A stretch of DNA of 64,000 nucleotides from an uncultured Acidobacteriota bacterium (GTDB lineage: Bacteria > Acidobacteriota > Vicinamibacteria > Marinacidobacterales > SMYC01), in NCBI GenBank assembly GCA_963820855.1, contig CAWGBY010000021.1, forward strand, positions 5,354-69,353, given 5' to 3'. A model generated the notes under the pieces. That model was not told the origin of the DNA and did not search any database. It saw only the letters and a list, made by a program, of their open reading frames with translations. The position numbers and the translations under genes are program-made. Shown piece after piece: positions 400 through 39,276 of this stretch (the first letter of the stretch is position 1; each line of letters begins with the position of its first letter).

Positions 400-1946
400 T
401 CGGCCCCCAGACTTCGGAGGGCGGCGGGAAGCTTTCCGATGAGGTCGGTCGCGACCAGGGAAGTCTGACCGATCTCGGCGGCGCCGAGGTCGCCGGCGAG
501 TCCGTGGACGTGGGCTCCCAGAGGAAGGGCCTCCTCGACGTCGATCCCCTGAGCGAGTAGTGAGCCCACGATTCCGGTGAGCACGTCTCCGGTCCCTCCG
601 GTCGCCATTCCCGCATTGCCCGTGAGATTCACGAGAACGTTTCCACTGGGATCCGACACGAGCGTGCGGCGGCCTTTCAAAAGCACGTGCGCCTTCGTGC
701 TCTGTGCGAGCCTTCGAACGGCGGTCAGGCGATCGTTCTCGACTTCCTTCGCCGATGTTCCGAGGAGTCTTCCGGCTTCTCCGGGGTGGGGAGTGAGAGC
801 GAGAGCGCGGCCGGAAGGTATGCTGCCCGGCTTGCGGGCAAAGGCGTTGAGCCCGTCGGCGTCGACGACGGTCGGAATCTCCGAAGCGGCGACGATCTCG
901 CAAATCAGATCGACGGTCTCGTCTTCCGTGCCGAGTCCAGGTCCCACGGCGAAAGCCTGGCGTTCGCGGAGAAGCTCGCGGAGCCTGGGAGCCGCCTCTA
1001 TCGAGACCGCTCCCGACTCGGTCTCGGGCAGAGCCTCCCACATGGCTTCCGGGATCTGCGGCGCCATGATCGGGATGGCGCTTTTCGCGGAAGCGACCGT
1101 GACCAGGCCGACGCCCGCGCGGAGCGCCGCTTCGGCGGCCATCACGGCCGCCCCCGTCTTCCCGAGCGAGCCCGCCAGGATCAGGAGGTGGCCGAACGTG
1201 CCCTTGTGGCTTACGGGCCGGCGCCTTGGAAGGGCCTCCGCCAGGATCGAAGGCTCGAGGGTCTCGAGCCGAGGCGTAGCACTCTCGAGAAACCGCGGCG
1301 GGATCCCGATCTCGACGACCGCGACCTCTCCGCAAAGCTCCGATGCCGGAGAAAGGAAGTGGCAGACCTTCGGGGCCGCGAAGGCGATGGTGAGATCGGC
1401 GTCGAACGCGACTCCGTGAACCACGCCGGAGTCCGATGACAGACCCGAGGGAACGTCGAGCGCTACGCGGAACGTCTCGAGCGAGTTCAGGTCCTCGATC
1501 ACGTGCCGATGGAAAGCGCGGGGCGGCTCGGTCAGGCCGGTGCCGAAGAGCGCGTCGACGACCACGTCGGCGGAAGCGATCTGGGCGAGGACGTCGCTCC
1601 AGGAGTCGGCCGCTGGAGCGGACTCGACGGAGAGTCCGAGCTTCAAGGCGGCCTGGAGGTTGTCGAGCGCCTCGGCGGAGAGCGCTTCGAACGGAGCGAG
1701 AACGATCGCGCGGGCGTCGTAGCCGAGATTGGCGAGCGTCCGGAGCACGACCAATCCATCGCCTCCATTTCCGCCCTTGCCGCAGACGATGACGATGGAT
1801 CGAGACTCGAGATCTTCGATGCGCTCCACCATGGTCCGGACGGCGGCGCGTCCAGCGCTCTCCATCAGGACCGACGCGGGAATTCCGACCTCACGGATCG
1901 TGCGCCGGTCGGCCTCGCGCATGGAGGCGCCGGTCAGGATGTGCAT
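396..1946 (-). CDS. nnr: bifunctional NAD(P)H-hydrate repair enzyme Nnr (epimerase + ADP-dependent dehydratase)
   Basis: Intact 516-aa ORF. N-terminal YjeF_N motif (IVIVCGKGGNGGDGLV). C-terminal carbohydrate-kinase-like domain (HKGTFGHLLILAGS..GKTGAAVMAA, GGTGDVLTG). Confidence 0.9.
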   Translation of the reverse strand: MHILTGASMREADRRTIREVGIPASVLMESAGRAAVRTMVERIEDLESRSIVIVCGKGGNGGDGLVVLRTLANLGYDARAIVLAPFEALSAEALDNLQAALKLGLSVESAPAADSWSDVLAQIASADVVVDALFGTGLTEPPRAFHRHVIEDLNSLETFRVALDVPSGLSSDSGVVHGVAFDADLTIAFAAPKVCHFLSPASELCGEVAVVEIGIPPRFLESATPRLETLEPSILAEALPRRRPVSHKGTFGHLLILAGSLGKTGAAVMAAEAALRAGVGLVTVASAKSAIPIMAPQIPEAMWEALPETESGAVSIEAAPRLRELLRERQAFAVGPGLGTEDETVDLICEIVAASEIPTVVDADGLNAFARKPGSIPSGRALALTPHPGEAGRLLGTSAKEVENDRLTAVRRLAQSTKAHVLLKGRRTLVSDPSGNVLVNLTGNAGMATGGTGDVLTGIVGSLLAQGIDVEEALPLGAHVHGLAGDLGAAEIGQTSLVATDLIGKLPAALRSLGAD

Positions 1947-2750
1947 GGGAGAGGCTTCCGGCCGAGCGCGATTTCGATCGCCTCTGCCGCCGCGACCTCC
2001 ATGGGATCCAGGAGTGGAACCTCACCGGCGCGCTCTCGACCTAGAACCAGCGGAATCTCGGTGCAGGCGGTGAGGACGAGAGACGCCCCCGCATCGCTAA
2101 GTCTTCGAGCGGCCTCCTGGAGCCGCGCGGCGATCGATTCACGGCACTTCGGGATCGCGGAACGCTCCCGACTTGATCCCGCCCCCGGCGCGTTTTCCCT
2201 CGTGCAACGGGCCGAAGATCGGTTCCATCACGAGCCGTTCCTGCATCTCGTCACCGCCGTTCAGATCGAGCAGACTCACGACGCGCGCTCGCGGCGCGAG
2301 CGCTTCGACCTTCTTCCGATAGATATCGGAGCGAACCGTTCCGGACACGGCGAGGAGACCGATCGTCCCGTCCCCACCCACGCGTTCGACCGCGCGCTCG
2401 GCGGTGACTTGAATCATGTCGAGGAAGGGGAGCGTGGTCCGCCGGCGGACCTCATCGAGAAACGCATGAGCGGTGTTGCAGGGAATGACGGCGAACGCGG
2501 CGCCCTCGAGCCGCTTCGCGCTTTCGACCATGGCATCGACGGGAGACTCCGCTCCCTCGAGAAGCGCCCGGGTCCGATCGGGAATGCCCGGCACGGACGA
2601 CACGACCCAGGAAGGGTAGTCCTGGTCTCGAGGCGGCCGACCGAGAGTTTTCGCCGCGCGGTCGAGGAGGAGGCTTTCGAACTCGATGTGGGCATGAGGC
2701 CCCATGCCTCCGAGGATGCCGATCACATACTTCCAGCGGGGCTCTGTCAT
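1934..2750 (-). CDS. aspartate/glutamate racemase family protein, interrupted by one frameshift in this assembly
   Basis: ORF 2139..2801 gives YVIGILGGMGPHAHIEF...AVIPCNTAHAF. The C-terminal third, ESIAARLQEAARRLSDAGASLVLTACTEIPLVLG..PLLDPMEVAAAEA, continues in another frame right after the TGA at 2141-2139. Likely start is the MTEPRWKY Met at 2750. The stop at 1936-1934 overlaps the nnr start. Confidence 0.75.
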
Positions 2751-2787
2751 TTCCTGGGAGCCGGCGAACTGCCGGCTTTCAGACCGC

Positions 2788-26555: not shown

Positions 26556-27006
26556 TCAGCCCGGGCATTCGGGGAAGACCCAGCTTCCCGAGGAGTCTTT
26601 CTCGACCGGGACGTGGGTCGATACGCAGCACGTATAGAGAGGGACGATCAAGTACTTCATCCCCAGGAGCTCGCTCGCCGGGCTCGTGGGACTCAAGACC
26701 GCGCGCTCCATTCGGCGGGTGTCGAGGTTCTTTTGAGCCTCCACCCAGACGTTCTTCGCTTCGTCGCACAGGGCTTTCATGTCTTCCCGGTCGTGCTGCG
26801 TCACGTAGTTGATCACCAGGTCGCGGTTCTCGTTCAGGTGCGTGCTGAGCACGGGAATCTCGAGCCCGGAAGGAAGCCGAAGAACGGGCTCACCCTCGAC
26901 CGGGCTGCACGACCGCTCTCCGCAGGCGCGGAACTCGCGGTATTGCCAAAGAAACCAGCCCGCCGCGGCCACTCCGATCGCAAGAAGCGCGAAGCCGAAG
27001 CTTCAT
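26556..27006 (-). CDS. membrane-anchored Cys-rich hypothetical protein; one frameshift near 26985
   Basis: ATG 27006 overlaps the upstream stop (ATGA). MKLRLRA then LLAIGVAAAGWFLWQYREFRACGERSC... (ORF 26556..26972). Eight Cys including a TCC pair. Confidence 0.5.
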
Positions 27007-28112
27007 CCCACGATCCTTCGATAACTCTCGGGGTCGGTCGCGCCTTCGGTGACCAGGACAAGTACGCGTCGCGTTCCGGTCGAGTCCGATATCGCCCCGG
27101 TCCGGCCGGGCGAGAAGGGCTTCGAGACCGGCGAGGGCCGCGGCTCCGGTCTCGCCCGATACGATCCCGGAGCGAGCGAGCGCGCGCATCGCTTCTTCCG
27201 CGAAGGAGTCGTCGATCGCGACGCACGCGTCGAGCCCCGCGAGGAGTGTGGGAAAAGCAATCGAGGACGGCGTGCCGCAATTGAGGCCGGCCATGATGGA
27301 ATCCTGTGGACCGGGAACGGTCACGAGCTTCCGCGCTTCGATGGACGCGAGAACGCAGGCGGCGCTCTTGGGCTCGACGCCGATGACCGAAGTGCCGCTG
27401 GTCCGCTTGTAGAAATCGACGGCGGCGGCGCCCAGAGCACCCACGCCGATGGGCACGAACGCTGCCGTGGGAGGCGAATCGATCTGCTCCGCGATCTCGC
27501 TGAAAGATCGTTCCGTAGCCCTGGATGACCCAGCGCGGGATTTCCTCGTAGCCCGGCCACGATGTGTCGTCCACGACGAGACACCGTTCGCTCATCTCCT
27601 CCGCGGAGCGGGCAATCGTCGCGTCATAGTCGCCGTCGACGACGGTTACGGTCGCTCCTTCGCTCTCGATCGCGCGGATGCGCGCCTCGGCCGTTCCCCG
27701 CGGAACGAAGATCCGCGCCTCGAAGCCGAGAACGCGCGCGAAATGGGCGACGGCACGGCCGTGGTTCCCATCCGTAGCCGCCGCGAGTGTGAAGGGATGG
27801 AGCACCTCGACCTCCCGCGCGAGGTCCTCGAGAGTCGACCAGCGGTCGAGGGCGAGACCGGACTTGTCGATGAGCGCGCGGTAGATCGCCCAGGACGCGC
27901 CCAGGAGCTTGAACGAAGGCAGACCGAAGCGGCTCGATTCGTTCTTCACCAAAACGCGCGCGACTCCGAGCCTCGAGGCGATAGCGTCGACCGAGACGAG
28001 TGGAGTGGGGGCGTACCTCGGAAGCTTGCGGTGAAACGGAGATCGGAGAAAGCGTATCCGACGCCAGCGGTGGGGGAGCTCCGGTCGAGCGATTGCGGAG
28101 ATACCTCGTCAT
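27003..28112 (-). CDS. dpaL: diaminopropionate ammonia-lyase (YgeX-like, PLP-dependent); about 3 frameshifts
   Basis: FHRKLPRYAPTPLVSVDAIASRLGVARVLVKNESSRFGLPSFKLLGASWA, TDGNHGRAVA (ORF 26834..27952). Then VPIGVGALGAAAV...MAGLNCGTPS (ORF 26890..27456). Tail VLVLVTEGATDPESY. ATG 28112 overlaps the upstream stop (ATGA). Confidence 0.85.
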
Positions 28113-29140
28113 CCGAGTCTCGCGAAGAGTCTCTTCTTCTGCTCGTCCGCGCGCCTCCGGATCTCCACGGGATCGACGCGCGTCGGTCGTCCGTCCTCGA
28201 GAACCGTCTCGCCCGCGACATCGACGCGAAGCGGCCGCACTCCGGGAGTGAACGCGAGATGCCAGGGCTCCATCGGGTCGTAGGACCAGGTGACGCGGTC
28301 CTCGCGCGCTTCGGGGAAGAGATCCCACCCCGCCTCGAGCCACTTCCACGCGGCCTCTGGAGACGCGGCGGAGTCCGCCTCTCGATGGCGCAGATACGCC
28401 ATGCGAAAGATCTCGATCATGTCGGCGCCGATTCCATCCGAGCCGAGCACGATGCGGTTTGGCTTCGACGCGGGGAACGCGTAGCCCACGGAGTTGTTCA
28501 TGTTCGAGAGCGGGTTGTGGGCGATCGTTCCCGGAAGCTCGCCGATCGAGGTGCACCGCGTGGGCGAGGAGCCAGCCGTCGCGCGCGCGGCCCTCGAGGC
28601 GCTTTCCCGATTCGATGTCCTCGGGGCCCTCGGCGACGTGGATGTGGACTCCGGCGTCGAGATCGGAGGCGAGCGACGCAGACCCTGTCGAGGGTATCGT
28701 CGGAAAGCGTGAAACAGGCGTGGGCCCCGACGATATCGCGGCCCTTTCCATCGAAGGTCTTCAGGTGCCGCTCGTTCTCCGCGAGCCCGGCCTTCGCTCC
28801 GTCGAGCCCGTGGCGGTCGGTCACTTCGTAGCAGGTCGCGACTCGCACGCCGACTTCGCGGCAGGCGCTCGGCGATGACCGCGAGCGACCCCTCGATGGC
28901 ATTCGGGGAGGCGTGGTGGTCGATGATGGCCGTGGTGCCGCGTTCGAGGGCCTCGAGGGCGCCGAGCTTGGCCGACCAGCGGATCATCTCGAGGTCGAGG
29001 GCCTGGTCGAGTCGCCACCAGATGAGCTCGAGGATCTCCCGAAAACTATGCGGAGCCCGTGGAGGCGCGGGCATACCCCTCGCCAGTGCGGAATACAGAT
29101 GGTGATGCGCGCAGACGAGACCGGGGGTGGTCGCTGACAT
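28109..29140 (-). CDS. SsnA-like/chlorohydrolase-type aminohydrolase lacking the usual N-terminal beta-sandwich segment; about 3 frameshifts
   Basis: MSATTPGLVCAHHHLYSALARGMP (HxH metal motif). Middle pieces in ORFs 28498..28902 and 27624..28751 (VGAHACFT, GVHIHVAEG). C-terminus NPLSNMNNSVGY, LGSDGIG. Confidence 0.8.
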   Translation of the reverse strand: MSATTPGLVCAHHHLYSALARGMPAPPRAPHSFREILELIWWRLDQALDLEMIRWSAKLGALEALERGTTAIIDHHASPNAIEGSLAVIAERLPRSRRASRDLLRSDRPPRARRSEGRARGERAAPEDLRWKGPRYRRGPRLFHAFRRYPRQGLRRSPPISTPESTSTSPRAPRTSNRESASRAARATAGSSPTRCTSIGELPGTIAHNPLSNMNNSVGYAFPASKPNRIVLGSDGIGADMIEIFRMAYLRHREADSAASPEAAWKWLEAGWDLFPEAREDRVTWSYDPMEPWHLAFTPGVRPLRVDVAGETVLEDGRPTRVDPVEIRRRADEQKKRLFARLG

Positions 29141-29149
29141 CGAACCCTC

Positions 29150-29165
29150 TAATGATAATGATAGT
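29150..29165. promoter_or_regulatory. AT-rich hexamer repeat (Fur-box-like) directly upstream of the SsnA-like gene RBS
   Basis: TAATGATAATGATAGT in a GC-rich context. 13 of 17 positions match the TAATGATAATCATTATC part of the classical Fur box by eye. Confidence 0.25.
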
Positions 29166-29344
29166 GGAGAACGTCGGCGGGGCTTACAATTTCGAGGAAT
29201 CTTTCCAACTCCTTTCGTCTATGTCATTTGGCTCCCGGCGACCCGGATTCCTGTGTCGAGCGTTCTGACACCCGCGACGATTCGGGCGTTTCCCTGGATT
29301 CGACAAACAGCCTGTCCACATACCTTTAGTGCGAGGTGCCAGAA

Positions 29345-29360
29345 TGGCCCGGCCTTTGCA
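29345..29360 (+). promoter_or_regulatory. candidate sigma54 (-24/-12) promoter
   Basis: TGGCCC-GGCCT-TTGCA matches TGGCAC-N5-TTGCW with exact GG/GC spacing. Lies about 60 nt upstream of ATG 29421. Confidence 0.45.
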
Positions 29361-29420
29361 ATCCCGTTGAGCTCACGTCGTCTGCGAGATTGGGAATGGC
29401 GCACCTCGTTCAGGACCGTG

Positions 29421-30313
29421 ATGAGATCGGGAAACCTCGCGCGGAGGACCGTCGTCCTCGTGGAGGCGCCGAGCTCTCCGTCCCTTCGAATCCGGCAGAT
29501 TGCCACGGAAGGCGGCTTCCGCGTCGTCTCCGCGATCTCAGGGCCGATGCTGCAGTCTTACGCCCGAAGGAACGCGCCGGACCTGATCCTCCTGGCTCCC
29601 GAGACCGGACCACCCGGACCGGCGGAGATCGCCCGCTCCATCAAGGAAGACCCGGAGACGCGCGAGATACCCGTGTTTCAGCTGATGCGCTCGAGCCGGT
29701 TCGGCGTGGAAAACGCCCGCCACACGTACCCGACCGAGGCGCTCCTCTCGGACGACGCTCCGGCCGATGAAATTCTGCGCACCATGCGGATGCTCACGAC
29801 CCGAGCGCCGCGAATTCGCTACGAAAAGAAGACGGCGTCCCAGCTCGAAGGAGACCTCGAGAGCGACACCTTTCCCGAGGTGCTGCAGTTTCTCTTCGCG
29901 ACCGCGAAGACCGGCCGCATCACGCTCCACGCCGGATCGCGAGAAGGGATGATTTGCCTCGAGTCGGGCCGCGTGGTGCACGCGGAGCTCGGCGAGCTGG
30001 AAGGCCTCGCCGCCTTCCGGCGCATGTGCTTCTCCCAGCAAGGCTGGTTTCGATTCGACCCGGGGACGCCCGGCCCCCGCCGCACGATGCGAGCCGACGG
30101 GATCGCGCTCCTCCTGGAATCCGCGCGGCAGAAAGACCTCGGGGATCGCGACAAGACTCCCTTCCCCGTGAAGAAACCCAGGACTTCCTCGACCGAGCTC
30201 TTCATCGTCGCGCGAGAGCGACGGCTGACTCGCGAGCCTCTCAGCTCGGCCCCGCCGGCATCGCAATTCTGGTCGGACTCCTCCTGCTCGTCGCCTACGG
30301 GCTCCTGCCCTAG
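29421..30313 (+). CDS. receiver-like domain + DUF4388/PATAN domain protein with C-terminal TM helix; one frameshift near 30240
   Basis: RRTVVLVEAP...PDLILLAPE (receiver fold, Ala where the phospho-acceptor Asp is expected). LEGDLESDTFPEVLQFLFATAKTGRITL..GMICLESGRVVHAELG..GLAAFRRM (DUF4388). Tail GIAILVGLLLLVAYGLLP from ORF 29954..30313. Confidence 0.7.
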
Positions 30314-33300
30314 CGCTTTCGCCGCATCGGAAGCTCGCTCCGCCAGACACCGTCCAGGTCGTGGAGCGCCGCCGCCACCGCGCCGGCCGTTGGGACGAGT
30401 CCAATCTCGCCGACGCCTTTGATCCCGTAGGGCGCGTTCGGCTGAGGGCTCTCGACGAGAATCACGTCGAGCTCCGGCATCTCCGCGGGCTTCAGGATCC
30501 CGAGGCTCTTCAAAGTCAGGTGGGTCGGACGGCCGTTCGCGTCGGCGGGGAAGTCCTCGCTGAGGGCGAAGCCGAGGCCCATGTGCACGGCGCCTTCCAC
30601 TTGCCCCTCGCACAGGAGCGGGTTCACGGCGCGTCCCACGTCGTGCGCGGCGACGACCTTCTCGATCTTTCCGCTGGCGCGGTCCACTACCACGAGCTGC
30701 GCCGCGTATCCGAACGTCGAGTGGATGACGGGATTCTCGACGCCCTCATAGAGCGAATTCGTCCAGTCGACCCGGTACTCACCCGGATAATCGACTCCGG
30801 GACGGCGGCCGTCCGCATCGGCCGCCTTGCACGCGGCGAGGACCGAGCCCGCGGTCATGAGCGTCGCGCGGGAGCCCGTGGTCTGGCCGGCGCCGAGCTC
30901 TCTCGTCGTGTCGACTTTCACGGTGACACGGCTGGGATCGATTCCGAGCTCCTCGACCGCGACCTGAAGAGCCACGGTGTGGACTCCCTGGCCCATCTCG
31001 GTCCAGCAGTGCCGGACCTCGATGCCCCCGTCCTCCGCGAAGCGAACGATCGCTTTCGCGACTTCCTTGAATCCGTTGCCGAGTCCCGAATTCTTGAGGC
31101 CGAGAGCGACCCCGACCGCTTTCCCGGCGGCGACGGAATCGTCGTACGCGGTCTTTACCGCATCGAGGCAGCGGAGGGCGCCGAGACATCCGTCGTCCAT
31201 GATCTGTCCCGGTCCCCAGACCGCGCCAGGCGCGATCACGTTTCGCCGCCGCATCTCGTATCCGTCGAGGCCGGCCTTCTCCGCGAGCCGATCGAGAACG
31301 CCGTCCATCGCGAAGTGCGCCTGGTTCGCGCCGAATCCGCGGAAAGCGCCGGCGATGGGATTATTGGTGCGCGCGGCCACGGCCTCGACGTCGACCGCCG
31401 GCACGTGGAAGGGTCCGGTCGCGTGCCCCGCGGCTCGCTCCAGGACTTTCATTCCGACGGAAGCGTAGGCGCCCGAGTCGCCCACCATCCGCGCTTTCAC
31501 CGCGGTGAGCTTTCCCTCCGCGTCGCAGCCCGCCCAGTACTCCATCCGGATCGGGTGCCGTTTGGGATGCATGAAGAACGACTCTTCGCGGGAGAGCGTG
31601 CACTTCACCGGCTTTCGCAGGAGAAACGCCGCGAGCGCGGTCTGCGCCTGGTTCGATAGGTCTTCTTTCCCGCCGAAGGCGCCGCCGTTCGACACCAGCT
31701 CCGCTTCGATTCGGTCGGGAGCGACACCGAGCACCGCCGCGGTCTGGTTGCGATCGTCCCAGATCCCCTGTCCCCCCGAGTAGAGCTTGAGGCGCCCGTC
31801 GGGAAGCGGCACCGCGAGCGTCGACTCTGGCTCGAGAAACGCGTGGTCGACGCGCTGCGTCTGGAAGACCTCGTGCACCCGATGGGCGGACGAAGCGAGC
31901 GCGGCCTCGACGTCTCCGCGGCGATACTTCGAACGGGAGAGAACGTTGTCTTTCGTTCCCCAGACCGCGATCTCGGCATCCTCGATCGCCGCGAGAGGGT
32001 CGGTGATTGGACGAAGCACCCGGTAGTCGACGTCCACGAGAGCGGCCGCGCGGCGCGCCGTCTCGCGATCGCGCGCGACCACGATGGCGAGAACGTCCCC
32101 GAGGTAGCTCGTGAGACCGCCCTCCGGAATGAAAACCGGCCAGTCCTTGTGGATGAGCCCGACGCGGAGCTCGCCGGGAACGTCTTTCGCGGTGAAGATG
32201 CCATCGACGCCTTCTTCACGCGAGGCCCGCGTCGTATCGATCCGGACGATTTCCGCCCGCGCATGGTCCGTGAGCCGCAGCGCTCCATGGAGCATTCCCG
32301 GGACGCGCATGTCGTCGATGTAGGGCCTCCGGCCAACCGCGAGATCGCACCCCTCGTACTTGATGCCGGAGCTTCCGATGCCTCGAGGGAGCTCGATCGC
32401 GACTTCGCCGCCCTGGGCCAGGAGCTCGACCGCGTCCAGAATCTTCACGTAGCCGGTGCAGCGGCAGAGGTGCGTTCCGAGAAAGCGCGCCGCCTCGTCC
32501 CGCGAAAGACTCGACCCCCTCGAATCGACGAGCGCTTTGGTGCGCATCACGATTCCCGGCGTGCAGAAGCCGCACTGAAGGGCGCCCTTCGAGGCGAAGG
32601 CGCGGGCGTAGCGCTCGAGCTCCTCCGGATCGATTCCTTCGAGAGTTTCGACGCTCTTTCCCGCGGTGGCCGCGAGCGATTGGGTGCAGCTCGTGACGGC
32701 TCTTCCCTCGACCAGCACCGTGCAGCAGCCGCACTGACCCGACGGCGAGCAGCCGTCTTTCGGAGAGATGACGCCCAGCTCTTCGCGAAGCGCGGAAAGG
32801 AGATGAGGGTGGCTTCCCTCGATTTCCACCTTCTCACCGTTCAGCGTGAAGACGGTCACAGCGGAGCCCTCCTTGGGCGGCACCGCGCCCCGGCGCTCGG
32901 TGATGAGCTTGTACTGGTCGGGCCTCCGGTAGCGGTCGAAATCGAAGAGCGTCTCCTTGTAGCTCCTGCACAGATCGAGGTCGCAGTCCGCGACCGCGAG
33001 CTCGTCTCCGTTCGTGTGGCACCGCGCGGCGATGACCCCCGAGGGAGCGATGATCGCGCTCTGCGCGAGGGAATCGACGCCCTCTTCGATTCCGCCCTTC
33101 GCCACTCCCACAACCCAGGTCCCGTTCTGATAGGCGCCGGCCTGCATCACCAGATGGTTGTGAAACCCGGCGAGCACGTCCTGGCTCGGATCCGGCGCGT
33201 AGTGAATGGGCGTGTTGTAGCCGATGAGAATCATTTCGACGCCCTGGAGCCCGAGCACCCGATAGGTCTCGGGCCAGCGGCGGTCGTTGCAGATCGCCAT

Positions 33301-33795
33301 CCCGACGACCCCACCGAACGCGCGCCACACGGGGAAGCCGTCGCTTCCCGGCTCGAAATAGCGGCGCTCGAGGTGCTGGAATCGCCGCCACGGCTCGTGC
33401 TCCTCGTGTCCGGGAAGGTGGACCTTTCGATATTTCCCGACGACGCGCCCGTCGCGCTCGACGAGAATCTGCGTGTTGTAGTGATGCCCGTCGGGGGTCA
33501 GCTCCGCGTAGCCGAGGCAGAAGCCGATGCCGAGCCGTTTCGCCTCGTCGAAGAGAGGCTTCGTATCCCGTCCCGGCATCTCACGCTCGAAGAACGAGTC
33601 GATCTCGCGCGGGTCCTCGATGTACCAGCGGGGGAAGAACGTGGTGAGAGCGAGCTCGGGGAATACGACGAGCTCGCAGCCACGCTCGTTCGCGCTTCGC
33701 AGGAGCGCGAGGAGCCTCTCGACGACCTGCGCCCGCGTCTCGCTCCTCGCCACGGGACCGAGCTGCGCGGCTCCCGCCGTGACCACCCGGCTCAT
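30310..33795 (-). CDS. single ORF encoding N-carbamoyl-amino-acid amidohydrolase (CN-hydrolase) joined in frame to an XdhD-like 2Fe-2S + molybdopterin hydroxylase
   Basis: ATG 33795 (ATGA overlap with the M20 stop) gives MSRVVTAGAAQLG..VVFPELALT..KYRKVHLPG..MAICNDRRWPE (Glu-Lys-Cys triad). Junction is ..DQYKLITERRGAVPPKEGSA-VTVFTLNGEKV. Then CSPSGQCGCC and CGFCTPG (2Fe-2S), hammerhead and MoCo-binding domains, GVGEIG. No frameshift in 3.5 kb. The Arg-rich 5' part of ORF 30310..34953 is spurious. Confidence 0.85.
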   Translation of the reverse strand: MSRVVTAGAAQLGPVARSETRAQVVERLLALLRSANERGCELVVFPELALTTFFPRWYIEDPREIDSFFEREMPGRDTKPLFDEAKRLGIGFCLGYAELTPDGHHYNTQILVERDGRVVGKYRKVHLPGHEEHEPWRRFQHLERRYFEPGSDGFPVWRAFGGVVGMAICNDRRWPETYRVLGLQGVEMILIGYNTPIHYAPDPSQDVLAGFHNHLVMQAGAYQNGTWVVGVAKGGIEEGVDSLAQSAIIAPSGVIAARCHTNGDELAVADCDLDLCRSYKETLFDFDRYRRPDQYKLITERRGAVPPKEGSAVTVFTLNGEKVEIEGSHPHLLSALREELGVISPKDGCSPSGQCGCCTVLVEGRAVTSCTQSLAATAGKSVETLEGIDPEELERYARAFASKGALQCGFCTPGIVMRTKALVDSRGSSLSRDEAARFLGTHLCRCTGYVKILDAVELLAQGGEVAIELPRGIGSSGIKYEGCDLAVGRRPYIDDMRVPGMLHGALRLTDHARAEIVRIDTTRASREEGVDGIFTAKDVPGELRVGLIHKDWPVFIPEGGLTSYLGDVLAIVVARDRETARRAAALVDVDYRVLRPITDPLAAIEDAEIAVWGTKDNVLSRSKYRRGDVEAALASSAHRVHEVFQTQRVDHAFLEPESTLAVPLPDGRLKLYSGGQGIWDDRNQTAAVLGVAPDRIEAELVSNGGAFGGKEDLSNQAQTALAAFLLRKPVKCTLSREESFFMHPKRHPIRMEYWAGCDAEGKLTAVKARMVGDSGAYASVGMKVLERAAGHATGPFHVPAVDVEAVAARTNNPIAGAFRGFGANQAHFAMDGVLDRLAEKAGLDGYEMRRRNVIAPGAVWGPGQIMDDGCLGALRCLDAVKTAYDDSVAAGKAVGVALGLKNSGLGNGFKEVAKAIVRFAEDGGIEVRHCWTEMGQGVHTVALQVAVEELGIDPSRVTVKVDTTRELGAGQTTGSRATLMTAGSVLAACKAADADGRRPGVDYPGEYRVDWTNSLYEGVENPVIHSTFGYAAQLVVVDRASGKIEKVVAAHDVGRAVNPLLCEGQVEGAVHMGLGFALSEDFPADANGRPTHLTLKSLGILKPAEMPELDVILVESPQPNAPYGIKGVGEIGLVPTAGAVAAALHDLDGVWRSELPMRRKR

Positions 33796-35042
33796 GAGGA
33801 AACCGCGTCGGTCTCGGTCAGTGTGAGGACGGTCTCGAGGAGGACGTTCGCCCCGAGCTCCAGGTCCGCGGGGTCGGTGTGCTCTTTCGGGTTGTGGCTC
33901 AGCCCCTTCACGCTGGGCGTGAAGATCATCCCCGACGGGCAGACGCGCGCGAGCATTTGGGCGTCGTGTCCGGCTCCCGCGGGGAGGCGCTTGACCGTCG
34001 CTCCGAGTGACGAGGCGGTCTCCTCGACGAGCGAGATCATTCTCGGATCGAAATCGACGGGCTCGAAGCGCGCGAGTCTTCGGGTCGAGATTTCGACGCC
34101 CTCGTCGTCCCCCGTCCGCCCGAGGAAATCGTCGAGCCTCGCTTCCGCCGACTGCAGGAGCTTCTCGTCGGTATTGCGGAGGTCCACCGTGAAGACCGCC
34201 TTGTTCGCGACGACGTTCACCAGGTTGGGCTCGAGCGTGAGGTAGCCGACCGTGCCGACCTGCGCGCCTTTCATCTCTCTCGTCAGTTGCCGCACGAACG
34301 CCGCCGTCGCCCCCGCCACGTACCCGGCGTCGTGCCGGTACGACATCGGCGTCGTGCCCGCGTGGTTCGACTGACCGCGCACGGTGACTTCCGTCCAGGA
34401 GATTCCCTGGACTCCGGTGACGGCGCCGATGCGGAAGCCCTCGGCCTCGAGGACCGGACCCTGCTCGATGTGAAGCTCGACGTAGGCGTACGGCACCGGG
34501 CCGGGGACCGGGGCCTCGCCTCGATAGCCAATGCGTGAAAGCTCGTCTCCGACCCGCTTTCCGTCGATGGTGACGGCGTCGTGAGCCTCCTCGAGCCCGA
34601 AGCCGCCGACGTACACCAGGCTCCCCATCATGTCGGGGGCGACGCGGCTGCCTTCCTCGTTCGAGAAGAAGGCCACGGCGAGCGGCCGCCGGGTCGTGAC
34701 ACCCGCGTCTTTCAGCGTTTCGACGACCTCGAGACCGGAGAGGACTCCGTAGTTTCCATCGTACCGCCCGCCGGTCCGGACGGTATCGATGTGAGAGCCG
34801 ACCATGACCGGAGGACCGTTCTCGAGGCCGGGACGGAAAGCGACGCCGTTTCCGATGGCGTCGATCGTGACCTTCATCCCGAGCTCGCGCATCCATCGGG
34901 TGACCAGATCGCGGCCCTCTTTGTCGGCGTCGGTGAAGGCGAGCCGGTTGCATCCGCCGTCGTCCCGCGCCCCGCGGGTCGCGAGCTCGGAAAGGCGACC
35001 GAGGAGCCTCTTGCCGTCGACGCGCAGTGATTTCTTCGTCAT
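33792..35042 (-). CDS. M20 family Zn-dependent amidohydrolase (allantoate amidohydrolase / N-carbamoyl-L-amino-acid hydrolase type)
   Basis: MTKKSLRVDGKRLLGRLSELA..GGCNRLAFTD..GSHIDTV..GRYDGNYGV..FSNEEG..SNHAGTTPM..GAGHDAQ. Intact. Confidence 0.9.
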   Translation of the reverse strand: MTKKSLRVDGKRLLGRLSELATRGARDDGGCNRLAFTDADKEGRDLVTRWMRELGMKVTIDAIGNGVAFRPGLENGPPVMVGSHIDTVRTGGRYDGNYGVLSGLEVVETLKDAGVTTRRPLAVAFFSNEEGSRVAPDMMGSLVYVGGFGLEEAHDAVTIDGKRVGDELSRIGYRGEAPVPGPVPYAYVELHIEQGPVLEAEGFRIGAVTGVQGISWTEVTVRGQSNHAGTTPMSYRHDAGYVAGATAAFVRQLTREMKGAQVGTVGYLTLEPNLVNVVANKAVFTVDLRNTDEKLLQSAEARLDDFLGRTGDDEGVEISTRRLARFEPVDFDPRMISLVEETASSLGATVKRLPAGAGHDAQMLARVCPSGMIFTPSVKGLSHNPKEHTDPADLELGANVLLETVLTLTETDAVSS

Positions 35043-35088
35043 CGGGAAATGCCCCCGGGCCTCAAAGGTTATGATAGCCTTTTTTCCC

Positions 35089-35961
35089 ATGGCCAGAATC
35101 GTCAAGGGCGGTCTCATCCAGTGCGCGAACCCCGTGAACGACGAGAGCCGTTCGGTTCGGGAGATCCAGGCAGCGGCGCTCGAAAAGCACCTGCCGTTCG
35201 TCGATCGGGCGGGTCAGGAGAAGGTGCAGCTCCTGTGTCTCCAGGAGATCTTCAACGGGCCTTACTTCTGCCCGTCGCAGGACGCGCGGTGGTACGACGC
35301 GGCGGAGCCCGTGCCGGGACCGACCGTCGAGGCTCTCGTTCCCTATGCGCGGAAGTACCAGATGGTCGTCGTCGTTCCTGTCTACGAGAGGGAGCAGGCG
35401 GGCGTCTACTACAACACCGCCGCCGTCCTCGACGCCGATGGGAAGTACCTCGGCAAGTACCGCAAGAACCATCTCCCGCACACGTCGGGCTTCTGGGAGA
35501 AGTATTTCTTCAAGCCGGGAAACCTCGGCTACCCCGTGTTCCAGACCGCCTACGCGACCGTCGGGGTCTACATCTGCTACGACCGCCACTTTCCGGAAGG
35601 CGCCCGGCTTCTGGGATTGAAAGGCGCGGAGATCGTCTTCAATCCTTCGGCCACGGTCGCCGGGCTCTCGCAGTATCTCTGGAAGCTCGAGCAGCCGGCC
35701 CACGCCGTCGCGAACGGCTACTTCATGGGCTGCCTCAACCGGGTGGGGGAAGAGGCCCCGTGGCGTATCGGAAAATTCTACGGGCACAGCTACTTCGTCG
35801 ATCCGCGGGGGAAGTTCCTCGCGGAGGGAAGCGAAGACCGGGACGAGCTCGTCACCGCGGAGATGGATCTCGACCTCATCGAGGAAGTCCGGCGCGTCTG
35901 GCAGTTCTACCGCGATCGCAGGCCCGAGACCTACGGAGAAATGACGGCCCTTCTTCCTTGA
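35089..35961 (+). CDS. beta-ureidopropionase-type CN-hydrolase (nitrilase superfamily)
   Basis: MARIVKGGLIQC..LLCLQEIF..KYRKNHLP..VYICYDRHFPE..NPSAT. Intact. Divergent from the M20 gene with a 46-bp spacer. Confidence 0.9.
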   Translation: MARIVKGGLIQCANPVNDESRSVREIQAAALEKHLPFVDRAGQEKVQLLCLQEIFNGPYFCPSQDARWYDAAEPVPGPTVEALVPYARKYQMVVVVPVYEREQAGVYYNTAAVLDADGKYLGKYRKNHLPHTSGFWEKYFFKPGNLGYPVFQTAYATVGVYICYDRHFPEGARLLGLKGAEIVFNPSATVAGLSQYLWKLEQPAHAVANGYFMGCLNRVGEEAPWRIGKFYGHSYFVDPRGKFLAEGSEDRDELVTAEMDLDLIEEVRRVWQFYRDRRPETYGEMTALLP

Positions 35962-35980
35962 GGCCGCCGGGAGGCACGAC

Positions 35981-36478
35981 ATGTCTTTGACCGATGCACA
36001 AGCTCACGCGGAGCGGGAATCTCTCGTCGAGCGCTACATCCGCAAGCCCGCCTACACCGGGTTCGAGAGCGAGGCCGCGGGGGTCAACCACCTCGCGTTC
36101 ATCAGCACCGATCTCGACAAGACCATCGAGTTCTACACCCAGGTCATCCGGCTCAAGATGCTGCGGGTGAGGGCGCATGACGAAGACCCGCGATCGACCC
36201 AGGTGTTCTTCGACATGGGACGAGGGGAGCTTCTCGCGTTTCTCCGCGTGAACGACATGAAGGAGAAAGCGCGCCTCGGACTCGGCGGATTCCACCACGC
36301 CGCGCTCACGGTGACCCGCGAGCAATACGAGGCGGCGAAAAAGCGCCTCGACGAGAGGGGAATCAAGTACAGCACGATCTCGCACGAGATCCTGGACACC
36401 ATCACCCTCACCGACCCGAACGGGATCACGCTCGAGCTCTCGGTCTGGAACGTCGACCCGAAAGACGTCCAGATGTGA
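35981..36478 (+). CDS. VOC (glyoxalase/bleomycin-resistance/dioxygenase) family protein
   Basis: GVNHLAFISTDLDKTIEFY..GGFHHAALTV..ITLELS. Intact 165 aa. Confidence 0.85.
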   Translation: MSLTDAQAHAERESLVERYIRKPAYTGFESEAAGVNHLAFISTDLDKTIEFYTQVIRLKMLRVRAHDEDPRSTQVFFDMGRGELLAFLRVNDMKEKARLGLGGFHHAALTVTREQYEAAKKRLDERGIKYSTISHEILDTITLTDPNGITLELSVWNVDPKDVQM

Positions 36479-37938
36479 CAACGGGACTCTCGGGCCCCGT
36501 CGTTCTCGTCTCCTATCTCGTTCTGGTCCTCGCCATCGGGTGGCTCTCGTCCCGCGGGCAGGGAACCCCCGAGGATTTCTGGGTCGCGGGACGTAGCTTT
36601 GGAGTGCCGCTTCTGGTGGCGGCGAACGTCGGCTCCATCCTGCACGGGGGAGCGATTCTGAGCCACGTCGGATTCGCCGCCCACGTCGGGGGAGTGGCCG
36701 TGACCACGAACCTGTCGTACGCGCTCGGGTTCGCGGTGATGTTCTTTTTCTTCGCGGCGAAGCTCCGCCGCTCGCGCGGGTTCACCCTTCCCGACTTCAT
36801 GGGCGACCGGTTCGATTCGCGCCTGCTCCGAGGCTGGACCGCTCTCGTGGTCGCGGTGACGAGCATCCTCTATCTCGTCGCGCAGATCCGCGCGATGGGC
36901 TTCGTGATGGAGCGTCTTCTCGGGCTCGAGTTCTGGGTGGGCCAGCTCGTCGGCACGGCGATCTTCGTCGCGTACGTCGCTCTCGGAGGCCTGAGCGCCG
37001 TCGTCTGGACCAACGTCCTCCAGATAGCCCTGATGTGGATCGGACTCCTGGTCCTGGCGCCTTCCGTGTATCGCGCGATCGGTGGGTTTCGCGAGCGTCA
37101 TGGACGCGAGCGGAAGCGGTGGCTCCCGGCTGGACCTCTCCTTCCGGAGTGCAGTGGTCGACGGGATATCTCATCTCCTGGTACCTCCTCGTCTTCATCG
37201 CCTACAGCACGAGGCTCGAGCTCCTGACGAAGGTGTTCGCCGCCCGCGACGAGGCCGTCGCGCGCCGCGCCATTCCGTGGACCGCGGTCATCGTGATCGC
37301 CTTTCTCGTCTTCGGCGGGACTCTATCTGGCCGCCGCCGCGCGCGTGCTGGTATGGGACTCGATCGCGTCGCCGGACGAGGCCTTTCCGGCGATGATCGC
37401 GATGCTCCTCGGACCGCTCGGCGACGTCGCTCGCGCTCACCGGCGTCGCCTGCGCCATCATGTCCACGACCGACTCCCTTCTTCTGATGACCGGATCGGC
37501 GGTGGCGCACGATTTCCTGAGAAGGTGCGTTCACGAGCCGAGAGGAACGAAGAGGAGCGAGGCCTACTATCTCAGGGTCTCGCGGCTGACGGTCGTGATG
37601 GTGGGCGCCCTGAGCTTTCTCCTCGCGCTTCCTGACGTCGCCCTCATTCTCGAGCTCGTGGCCTACGCGCTCGCGATCGTGGGGTCGAGTTTCTTCTTCC
37701 CGCTGCTCGCGGGGCTCTGGTCGCCGCGCGTGAGCCGCGAAGCGGCGACGATCGCCTCGATCGCGGGCGGCCTCATTGCGGCGTTCTGCACGGTGTTCGC
37801 GATCCGGGAGGCGCCCTGGGCGCTCCAGGTGCACCCGGTCGTTCCCGGGCTCGCTCGTGTCCGGCGATGCTCATCGTGGTCGTGACTCTCTTCACCCGCC
37901 CGGTCCGCGACGAGGCGGTGCGGCTCTACTTCACCTGA
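36475..37938 (+). CDS. sodium:solute symporter (SSS) family transporter; about 5 frameshifts
   Basis: GTG 36475 overlaps the VOC stop (GTGA). EDFWVAGRSFG, TLPDFMGDRF, multiple TM segments across ORFs 36475, 37035, 37345 and 37460. Ends ..VRLYFT*. Confidence 0.8.
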
Positions 37939-37957
37939 ATTCCAAGGAGTGAACTCC

Positions 37958-39276
37958 ATGTCGCGTCGGTCCTTCCTGAAATCGGTCGGCCTCCTCGGAG
38001 GCGCCAGCTTCACCGGACGCCGGGAATCGCAGGCCGGCGGGCTTTCTCTCGGCGATATCGACGTCATCGACGTGCACGTCCATCCGCCGCAGCCGATGAC
38101 GCTTCGGCAGTCGTACGACGGCTGGAACTCGTCTTTCGTCGACGCGCTCTTGCCCGCCTTCGACTATCCGCAGAAAGAAGAGCTGCGGGAGAAGCTCGGA
38201 GGCGTCTTCAAGGGGCACCTCTACCGCATGCCGCGGCAGATCGGCTACTACAACTACATGGCGAGGGTGTACGGCGTCGAGCCGACGCTCGAGGGTTTCG
38301 ACTCCGTCCTCGAGAAGAAGCTCAAGGGCGACTTCAGCGAGTACATCTCCTCGATCCTCGACCGGGAGAGGATCCCGGCCGTCGTCCTTCAGTCGCGCTC
38401 CTCCGATCCGGTTCGGCCGGAGAGCGCGATTCCCCGGCACCGCTTCGTCTGGACGTACTCCGTCGGCGATCTGATCCAGCCGACCTGGCCGCAGGCGCAG
38501 GAAGCGCGCGAGCTCGGGGAAGTGCTCGAGCGGGTCGACTTCGATTCTGAAGCGCGCCGCCGAGAACGATTGCCGCGGAATCAAGATTCCGATCGCCTAC
38601 TACCGGCCCATCGTCATCGAAGCGGTCGAGAAAGACGAGGCCGAGCGACGCGCTCTGAAGACTTTTCGCGACCTCCCACCCTCCGGGCAGCGCGCGTTTC
38701 CCGGCCCGATTCCTCTCTACGACGACCCCGCCGTCACGAGGGCGGTCCACCGGTATCAGGACTACCTCCTCAAGCACATGTACGTTCGGGCGGGAGAGCT
38801 CGGCCTCAAGGTCATCATCCATACGGCCGTCGGGCTCCATCCCGGGACTTCGCTTCGACTACAACAGCCCGGTCGACATGTACCACACCTTCCAGAACGA
38901 CGACGTGAAGCGGGCCTATACCGAGTTCGTGCTGATTCACACCGGTTATCCCTACCATCACCACGTGGCCGCGCTCCTGAGCCAGTTCCCGAACGTCTAC
39001 ACCGACGTCTCGTTCTACGCGAAGTTCCCGGGGACGCTCGAGGAGACGATGAAGGCGTTTCTCTCGCTCGCCCCGTCCGAGAAGGTGATGCACGGGAGCG
39101 ACTCGAACAACGTGCCGGAGGAGATCGGCTACTGCGCCGACAACAGCCGCCGGGTGCTCGGGAAGCTTCTGAACGAGTTCCAGAGCTACTACGGCTGGAC
39201 GGAGAAGGACTGCCGCATCGCCGCCGAGAACGTGCTCAGCGGGAACGCGCGAAGGATCTATCGAATCCCCGCTTAG
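37958..39276 (+). CDS. Tat-exported amidohydrolase (amidohydrolase_2/TIM-barrel type); 2-3 frameshifts
   Basis: AAGGAG then ATG 37958. MSRRSFLKSVGLLGG (twin-Arg). IDVIDVHVH. Continues through ORFs 38778 and 38878 (IIHTAVG, VLIHTGYPY, HGSDSN). Confidence 0.8.

Follow-up and report, generated by a model that had tools for sequence, protein, structure and literature searches.

The window, the 64,000-nucleotide stretch of acidobacterial DNA analyzed here, carries a long open reading frame (ORF) on its minus strand (30310..33795). The initial annotation described it as a complete CN-hydrolase running without a stop into a complete XdhD-like hydroxylase, and translation bore this out. The ORF encodes 1161 residues, and its sole stop is terminal. 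Pfam placed a CN_hydrolase domain at residues 7 to 280 and, from residue 316 to approximately 1158, the Fer2/Fer2_2, Ald_Xan_dh_C (a/b hammerhead), MoCoBD_1, and MoCoBD_2 domains. The ORF is also listed in a 1547-aa form that begins at an upstream ATG within the preceding M20 gene. The carbamoylase itself begins with the ATG at 33795, and this codon overlaps the stop of that M20 gene. The features of the locus are collected in Table 1.

Table 1. Genes and junction elements of the carbamoylase-XdhD locus (window coordinates)
Feature	Coordinates	Strand	Description	Basis
D-carbamoylase-like CN-hydrolase gene	32856..33795	-	312 aa if the putative extra base is discounted; reads through as assembled	Pfam, phmmer, orthologues
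GGCT	32866..32869	-	4-nt stretch that probably holds one extra base	L002 alignment and junction comparison
Shine-Dalgarno-like AAGGAGGG	32867..32874	-	7 nt upstream of the XdhD-like start	GGAGGAG in relatives at this position
GTGA stop/start overlap	32856..32859	-	GTG, XdhD-like start; TGA, expected carbamoylase stop	Relatives have ATGA
XdhD-like 2Fe-2S and molybdopterin hydroxylase gene	30310..32859	-	849 aa, no FAD domain	Pfam, TIGR03311, orthologues

The N-terminal part had been labeled a carbamoylase, and this label is sound. It matched PDB entries 8i99, 1fo6, and 1erz at E values of 1e-107 to 1e-127. With phmmer, residues 1 to 303 aligned end to end with stand-alone N-carbamoyl-D-amino-acid hydrolases of 303 to 307 aa (E values down to 5e-127). 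PF00795 scored 179 bits against a cut-off of 23.2, indicating a full-length CN_hydrolase domain. The motifs FPEL, YRKVH, and AICND occur at residues 45, 122, and 167, and such motifs carry the Glu-Lys-Cys triad in the nitrilase superfamily. D-Carbamoylases of known structure (PDB 8i99, 6lcg, 1fo6, and 1erz) resemble the window enzyme over its full length (residues 1 to 303), but the predicted substrate differs. Judging from its genomic context, the window carbamoylase may act not on a D-amino-acid derivative but on a ureido compound formed during purine breakdown.

Pfam, TIGR03311, and a PDB match all agree with the description of the C-terminal part as an XdhD-like 2Fe-2S/MoCo protein. TIGR03311 (Se-dependent XDH) was its best NCBIfam model and matched over the full profile length at 792.5 bits, which is below the curated cut-off of 830.45 for equivalog membership. 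The best PDB match, aligned from residue 3, was the aldehyde oxidoreductase of Desulfovibrio gigas, which is likewise a 2Fe-2S and MoCo chain without an FAD domain. Judged by these profiles and alignments, each half of the ORF is a complete stand-alone unit.

An internal Shine-Dalgarno sequence (AAGGAGGG, 32874-32867) and a GTG codon (32859-32857) had been reported at the junction, and reading the sequence confirmed the coordinates of both. They are separated by the 7-nt spacer CTCCGCT. The GTG is in frame as residue 313 of the ORF, and the TIGR03311 match begins at residue 316 and covers positions 3 to 842 of the 848-position profile. Therefore, this GTG appears to be the start site of a stand-alone XdhD-like protein. 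The TGA of the GTGA tetranucleotide (32858-32856) is out of frame relative to the upstream ORF, as had been claimed. In the fused reading, the peptide that spans the junction is ...GAVPPKEGSAVTVFTLNGEK... / ...PPKEGSAVTVF.... The Shine-Dalgarno sequence, the GTG, and the TGA are all undecayed and at orthologous positions, as expected if the locus in the organism is unchanged.

The initial annotation offered two readings of this arrangement and proposed aligning the junction with orthologous loci. We compared it with 13 related loci, two of them on public contigs (L002 and L039) and the others from eleven genomes of the same genus and family (L004 to L014). Gene order was the same at all 13, and at every one the carbamoylase and XdhD genes were separate, either in different frames or with an intervening stop. 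The four closest relatives are two same-genus genomes and the two public contigs, the latter with approximately 90% protein identity. In these four the genes share an ATGA stop/start overlap, and the carbamoylase ends in EEPA (L002), EEPT (L004), EEPT (L005), or EEPS (L039), each followed directly by the stop. Relatives thus have one base fewer upstream of the XdhD start, and the carbamoylase terminates at the ATGA/GTGA overlap. This is the arrangement that the initial annotation had named as evidence against a fusion.

The first of the two readings, and the one preferred in the initial annotation, was that a genuine and very recent one-base insertion has produced a 1161-aa bifunctional carbamoylase-XdhD protein. 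In that case, XdhD may also be translated separately, from the Shine-Dalgarno sequence and GTG inside the ORF. The frame is indeed uninterrupted. Neither half is truncated, and both are well conserved, at 88% and 90% full-length identity to the L002 orthologues. The two genes are also conserved neighbors in one pathway cluster, which is the usual raw material for fusions. However, the fusion is absent from 13 of 13 relatives, and the translation signals at the junction have not decayed, although the latter is still compatible with a fusion that is very recent. A weak argument against a fusion is that only about 9 residues would link the carbamoylase to XdhD, and structures of the carbamoylase were solved as a stand-alone protein with four chains per entry (8i99 and 1fo6). 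For these reasons, and others given below, we consider a genuine fusion unlikely. The second reading was that an assembly indel hides the carbamoylase stop.

Where the extra base lies can be narrowed down by comparing the junction from both sides. The stretch that runs from the conserved carbamoylase residue Glu300 to XdhD residue Phe4 measures 45 nt in the window, as opposed to 44 nt in L002, and blastn against L002 placed a one-base insertion in the window at approximately 32869. The relatives read GAG GAG CCG NCA TGA, and the window reads GAG GGCT CCG CTG TGA. At the position of GGCT the relatives have a 3-nt GAG codon, flanked by a conserved GAG and a conserved CCG. Therefore, the extra base probably lies within GGCT (32869-32866). 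The assembled sequence of 32874-32860 is GAGGGCTCCG / GAGGGCTCCGCTGTGA. Removing any single base in this interval, which gives for example GAGGCTCCG or GAGGGCCCG, yields a carbamoylase that terminates at the TGA of GTGA after 312 aa, the length of the orthologues in L002 and L039. When the removed base lies 5' of the CCG codon, the protein also regains the conserved Pro at its penultimate position.

A search of 5.8 billion proteins provided orthologues of the XdhD-like part. They are 849 to 854 aa long, are 88 to 91% identical, start with MTVFTLNG or MTAFTLNG, and align with the last 73% of the 1161-aa query only. We also looked for a contig of the same species by searching metagenome contigs with an exact-anchor pattern that allows a variable spacer, GCCGCCCAAGGAG N5-14 GTGACCGTCTTCACGCT. 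It returned no match, and the best protein matches were 91% identical.

The carbamoylase tail is variable among the relatives. The relative frame of the two genes has shifted in evolution, with gaps of 32 to 87 nt, and so real indels do occur in this region, which is a point against an artefact. Such tolerance of changes in length and frame also counts in favor of a genuine fusion.

Fused proteins other than the one in the window were sought with a junction-centered query (residues 180 to 440) in the 5.8 billion proteins, a design in which fused proteins should outrank XdhD-only ones. There were five: P0014 (1150 aa), P0123 (656 aa), P0124 (703 aa), P0125 (663 aa), and P0126 (732 aa). Each is a singleton known from one contig, and four of the five end part-way through XdhD. 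The neighboring M20 and/or XdhD genes are fragmented in every case, with M20 pieces of 98 to 310 aa and XdhD present as two or three ORFs. At one of these junctions (L040), the overlap is ATGA with the TGA out of frame, a run of six Gs lies 20 nt upstream, and one G fewer would restore the stop. At another (L044), an alternative frame ends in PEETP and a stop at ATGA, matching the conserved tail. Two more (L041 and L043) are garbled by several shifts. P0014, which is 66% identical and covers the whole query, was considered as a natural fusion and rejected. The M20 gene adjoining it upstream is split in two, and its junction has the ATGA with an out-of-frame TGA and the G6 run 20 nt upstream. 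No fused form was seen on a contig with intact neighboring genes in this search. The fused form is confined to contigs with fragmented neighbors, which is predicted by an artefact and not by a natural fusion.

The quality of the source assembly bears directly on this question. The genome amounts to 8.26 Mb in 31 contigs, with the window on the one that we call C21, and its marker-gene completeness is 74.5%, compared with 91 to 95% for same-genus genomes of similar size. We sampled frame switches by searching 115 long ORFs, taken from 320 kb of four related genomes (G002, G003, G009, and G016), against the whole source genome. An orthologue-like match was found for 75 of the 115, and 31 of these 75 (41%), on seven contigs, were split across frames. 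The aligned coding sequence came to 96 kb and contained 53 switches (0.55 per kb), whereas the same procedure applied between relatives as a control gave 7 switches in 131 kb (0.053 per kb). Among 50 unique switches, 42 (84%) were of the +1 type, which implies one inserted base or, with lower probability, two deleted bases. Nucleotide alignments agreed. The window has 31 one-base insertions (junction included) and 3 one-base deletions over 13.2 kb aligned with L002, and for C21, aligned over 75.5 kb with the same-genus genome G002, the corresponding counts are 201 and 55. One example is an SsnA-like gene at 28115-29074, where four insertions and one deletion, all inside 28539-28868, leave a single ORF whose middle is garbled and whose identity reaches only 65%. 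The extra base at the carbamoylase-XdhD junction (+1) is of the prevailing error type, and 41% of the genes sampled in this assembly carry frame shifts, which argues against a genuine fusion.

What causes these errors was explored in two ways. Homopolymers do not account for them, because many of the one-base insertions lie elsewhere. The GGG run at the junction is therefore no special reason to suspect an error there, and this lack of help from sequence context is a further point against an artefact. A methylation or other sequence motif was also considered, since GAGCTC and GATC seemed frequent by eye, but k-mer enrichment gave no convincing motif. The top k-mer near switches was ACCGTG, with 5 observed and 0.39 expected in 32 sites when compared with random genome segments.

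Frame switches that are so numerous, and on so many contigs, could instead be biological. The extra base would then be real and the locus pseudogenized or degenerating in a genome with widespread gene decay. We regard this as very improbable. Orthologue identity is 70 to 95% on both sides of the switches, with no accumulated stops or deletions, and an excess of 31 one-base insertions over 3 deletions is a technical signature rather than a mutational spectrum. Furthermore, frame switches in the carbamoylase gene also occur in highly contiguous genomes of the family (G004, with 20 contigs, and G018, with 1 contig), and others occur in a G002 region (L027) compared with G003.

The initial annotation had also stated that there is no other frameshift in the surrounding 6 kb. 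This is correct inside a block around the junction, but several switches lie just outside it. The junction is the only indel at 30236-35960 in comparison with the closest relative and at 30226-37083 in comparison with a same-genus genome, and frame switches outside the block fall at approximately 38540, 37855, 37423, 27502, 27066, and 24428. That the junction is the sole indel in a clean block of approximately 6.8 kb (30.2 to 37.1 kb) is the best point in favor of a genuine fusion, though not a strong one. The genome-wide load is 0.55 switches per kb, and at that rate the probability of one or no switch in 5.7 kb is 0.18. The junction also shares the +1 type of 84% of the switches. There is also a precedent for an isolated error. 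In a second clean block (3 to 9 kb of C21), a lone +1 switch at approximately 2150-2200 of the window breaks a conserved gene. Therefore, isolated errors do occur in clean multikilobase blocks, and the use of the clean 6 kb as support for a fusion proved weak.

The error rate in the block around the junction is approximately 0.1 per kb, below the genome average, and errors are unevenly spread. A per-site probability argument was set aside as not decisive by itself, since the local rate is so low. The case for an artefact rests on the type of error, the relatives, and the confinement of fused calls to error-prone contigs.

Programmed ribosomal frameshifting or another form of recoding at the junction might normally terminate the carbamoylase. 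Shine-Dalgarno-like sequences stimulate some bacterial frameshifts, and AAGGAGG lies upstream of the junction, although nothing specific points to recoding here. The relatives have a plain stop at ATGA and need no such mechanism, no slippery sequence is apparent in 32874-32860, and insertions throughout the assembly make a special mechanism unnecessary. Recoding is therefore the least credible of the explanations considered.

Taken together, the relatives, the error type, and the frameshift load of the assembly all point away from a genuine fusion, and the preference of the initial annotation for that reading is not supported. The evidence favors, with considerable confidence, its other reading, in which an assembly indel hides the carbamoylase stop. 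The apparent fusion very probably consists of two ordinary genes that overlap and were joined by a spurious base, one of hundreds of single-base insertion errors in this draft genome. We infer indirectly, from comparisons of assembled sequences, that this base is absent from the real DNA. In the organism, a 312-aa carbamoylase and an 849-aa XdhD would be translationally coupled and share a 4-nt GTGA overlap, just as their orthologues share ATGA. Among the final 15 nt of the carbamoylase gene, where the spurious base would lie, the GGCT stretch is its most likely position.

The same model would explain why the result looks so clean. When two genes overlap by 4 nt, the start codon of the second precedes the stop codon of the first by one base. 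Therefore, any +1 shift in the tail puts the upstream frame onto the downstream frame and makes a seamless false fusion. Ahead of the XdhD start in L002, the XdhD frame stays open for approximately 150 codons. Where most errors are insertions and 4-nt overlaps are common, read-through of this kind is expected repeatedly, and the case in the window stands out only because an insertion in the last 15 nt spares both domains.

Watson and Warr reportedly drew attention in 2019 to gene-breaking indel errors in long-read assemblies. Indel errors that fragment or fuse genes have been described in long-read (meta)genome assemblies (PMC12007338 [Kastor]), as have Nanopore indels (PMC9262707). The window genome resembles such cases in its surplus of unevenly distributed single-base indels, which split ORFs or join them, in its low marker-gene completeness despite high contiguity, and in the recurrence of the same false fusion in other error-prone contigs. 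It differs in that its errors are overwhelmingly insertions, many of them outside homopolymers, and in that the error discussed here, in a 15-nt tail before a 4-nt overlap, would give a clean-looking fusion rather than a broken gene.

This calls for caution wherever genes overlap in ATGA or GTGA. One inserted base in the upstream tail is enough to produce a fully open and plausible "bifunctional fusion." Public protein databases appear to hold several false carbamoylase-XdhD fusions of this kind, derived from error-prone long-read contigs. For the source genome, single-gene oddities (a fusion, a split, or a frameshift) are best presumed to be assembly errors until reads show otherwise.

The gene pair itself lies in a recognizable pathway context. 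Its neighbors, judged from their intact L002 orthologues, encode an SsnA-like amidohydrolase, a second CN-hydrolase, a sodium/solute symporter, a diaminopropionate ammonia-lyase in the role of YgeX (344 bits against a cut-off of 276), and an M20 enzyme of the allantoate-amidohydrolase/carbamoylase type in the role of YgeY. The reductive uric acid degradation cluster of E. coli comprises XdhD, YgfK, SsnA, HyuA, YgeW, YgeY, and YgeX (PMC12507026). The window locus shares its SsnA-like, YgeX-like, and M20 (YgeY-type) members with that cluster, and the window XdhD-like protein resembles the E. coli XdhD/TIGR03311 family in being one chain with 2Fe-2S, a/b hammerhead, and MoCo-binding parts and no FAD domain. 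Unlike the E. coli cluster, the window cluster has two CN-hydrolases and a hydroxylase that scores below the TIGR03311 cut-off. Neither YgfK nor YgeW was seen in the examined part of the window cluster. The host belongs to the Acidobacteriota (its closest matches are Vicinamibacteria-like), a phylum absent from the survey in PMC12507026.

Overall, these genes seem to form an acidobacterial version of the recently described cluster for reductive uric acid degradation. Because the carbamoylase and XdhD genes are conserved as a pair and often overlap, the CN-hydrolase may carry out one of the ureido cleavages in this version. It is doubtful that a fused 125-kDa enzyme joins the first (purine reduction/oxidation) and late (ureido cleavage) steps of reductive purine/uric acid degradation. 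The underlying biology is ordinary but useful, in that it identifies the carbamoylase as a conserved and probably translationally coupled neighbor of XdhD.

Single-base insertions occur throughout the assembly of the bacterium studied here (G000; GCA_963820855.1). Among conserved genes sampled across the whole genome, 41% were frame shifted, and the coding sequence carried 0.55 frame switches per kb; of these, 84% were of the +1 type (a one-base insertion or, less likely, a two-base deletion). The assembly comprises 8.26 Mb in 31 contigs and is 74.5% complete, a value that is probably explained by frameshifts caused by these insertions. Any fused or split gene of this genome requires read support.

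In the window, the SsnA-like amidohydrolase is a single 343-aa ORF as assembled, but its gene holds four one-base insertions and one deletion. The middle third of the ORF is out-of-frame nonsense, and its identity to the orthologue is 65% rather than ~90%. A conserved gene, labeled "racemase" from sequence alone, is disrupted by one isolated +1 switch in an otherwise clean block of ~5 kb.

Locations of the gene cluster, frame switches, and database "fusions"
Feature	Location	Compared locus
Gene cluster	window 26556-38870	L002:1-12293 (closest relative)
SsnA-like gene	window 28115-29074 (-); indels 28868, 28750, 28733, 28679, 28539	
"Racemase" gene	window 1943-2756 (-); switch ~2150-2200	
Frame switches, examples	window 24428, 27066, 27502, 37423, 37855, 38540	
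G000 contigs with switches, examples	C9, C12, C14, C15, C21, C24, C28	
Switch in orthologous carbamoylase gene	L006 (G004:C20) ~1959-1961	
Switch in orthologous carbamoylase gene	L011 (G018:C1) ~2064-2066	
Frame switch	L027 (G002)	L037 (G003)
Five carbamoylase-XdhD "fusions"	L040:8001-11453; L041:3501-5492; L042:3501-5699; L043:3501-5471; L044:3501-5612	

Frame switches are likewise present in other genomes of this family that are highly contiguous, at L006, at L011, and in L027 versus L037. Therefore, among assemblies of this group that are long and in few contigs, indel errors are not confined to G000.

Five carbamoylase-XdhD "fusions" (P0014 and P0123 to P0126) occur in public protein collections. 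Because neighboring genes are fragmented on the contigs of all five, these look like the same artifact, at the same 4-nt overlap as the window junction. In a separate NCBI protein, P0013 (1,659 aa, from a 9.9-kb contig), a linker rich in Ala and Thr connects a molybdopterin large subunit of the CoxL/XdhA type with an XdhD-like chain; this may be a true fusion or a further read-through.

The window cluster looks like a variant form of the cluster for reductive uric acid degradation (PMC12507026). It encodes XdhD-like, SsnA-like, YgeX-like (diaminopropionate ammonia-lyase), and M20 YgeY-type (amidase) proteins and additionally has two CN-hydrolases and a sodium/solute symporter. Its host is Vicinamibacteria-like (Acidobacteriota), and the survey in that study does not list this phylum. 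The D-carbamoylase-like gene, which shows translational coupling to XdhD, might stand in for YgeW/UacY.
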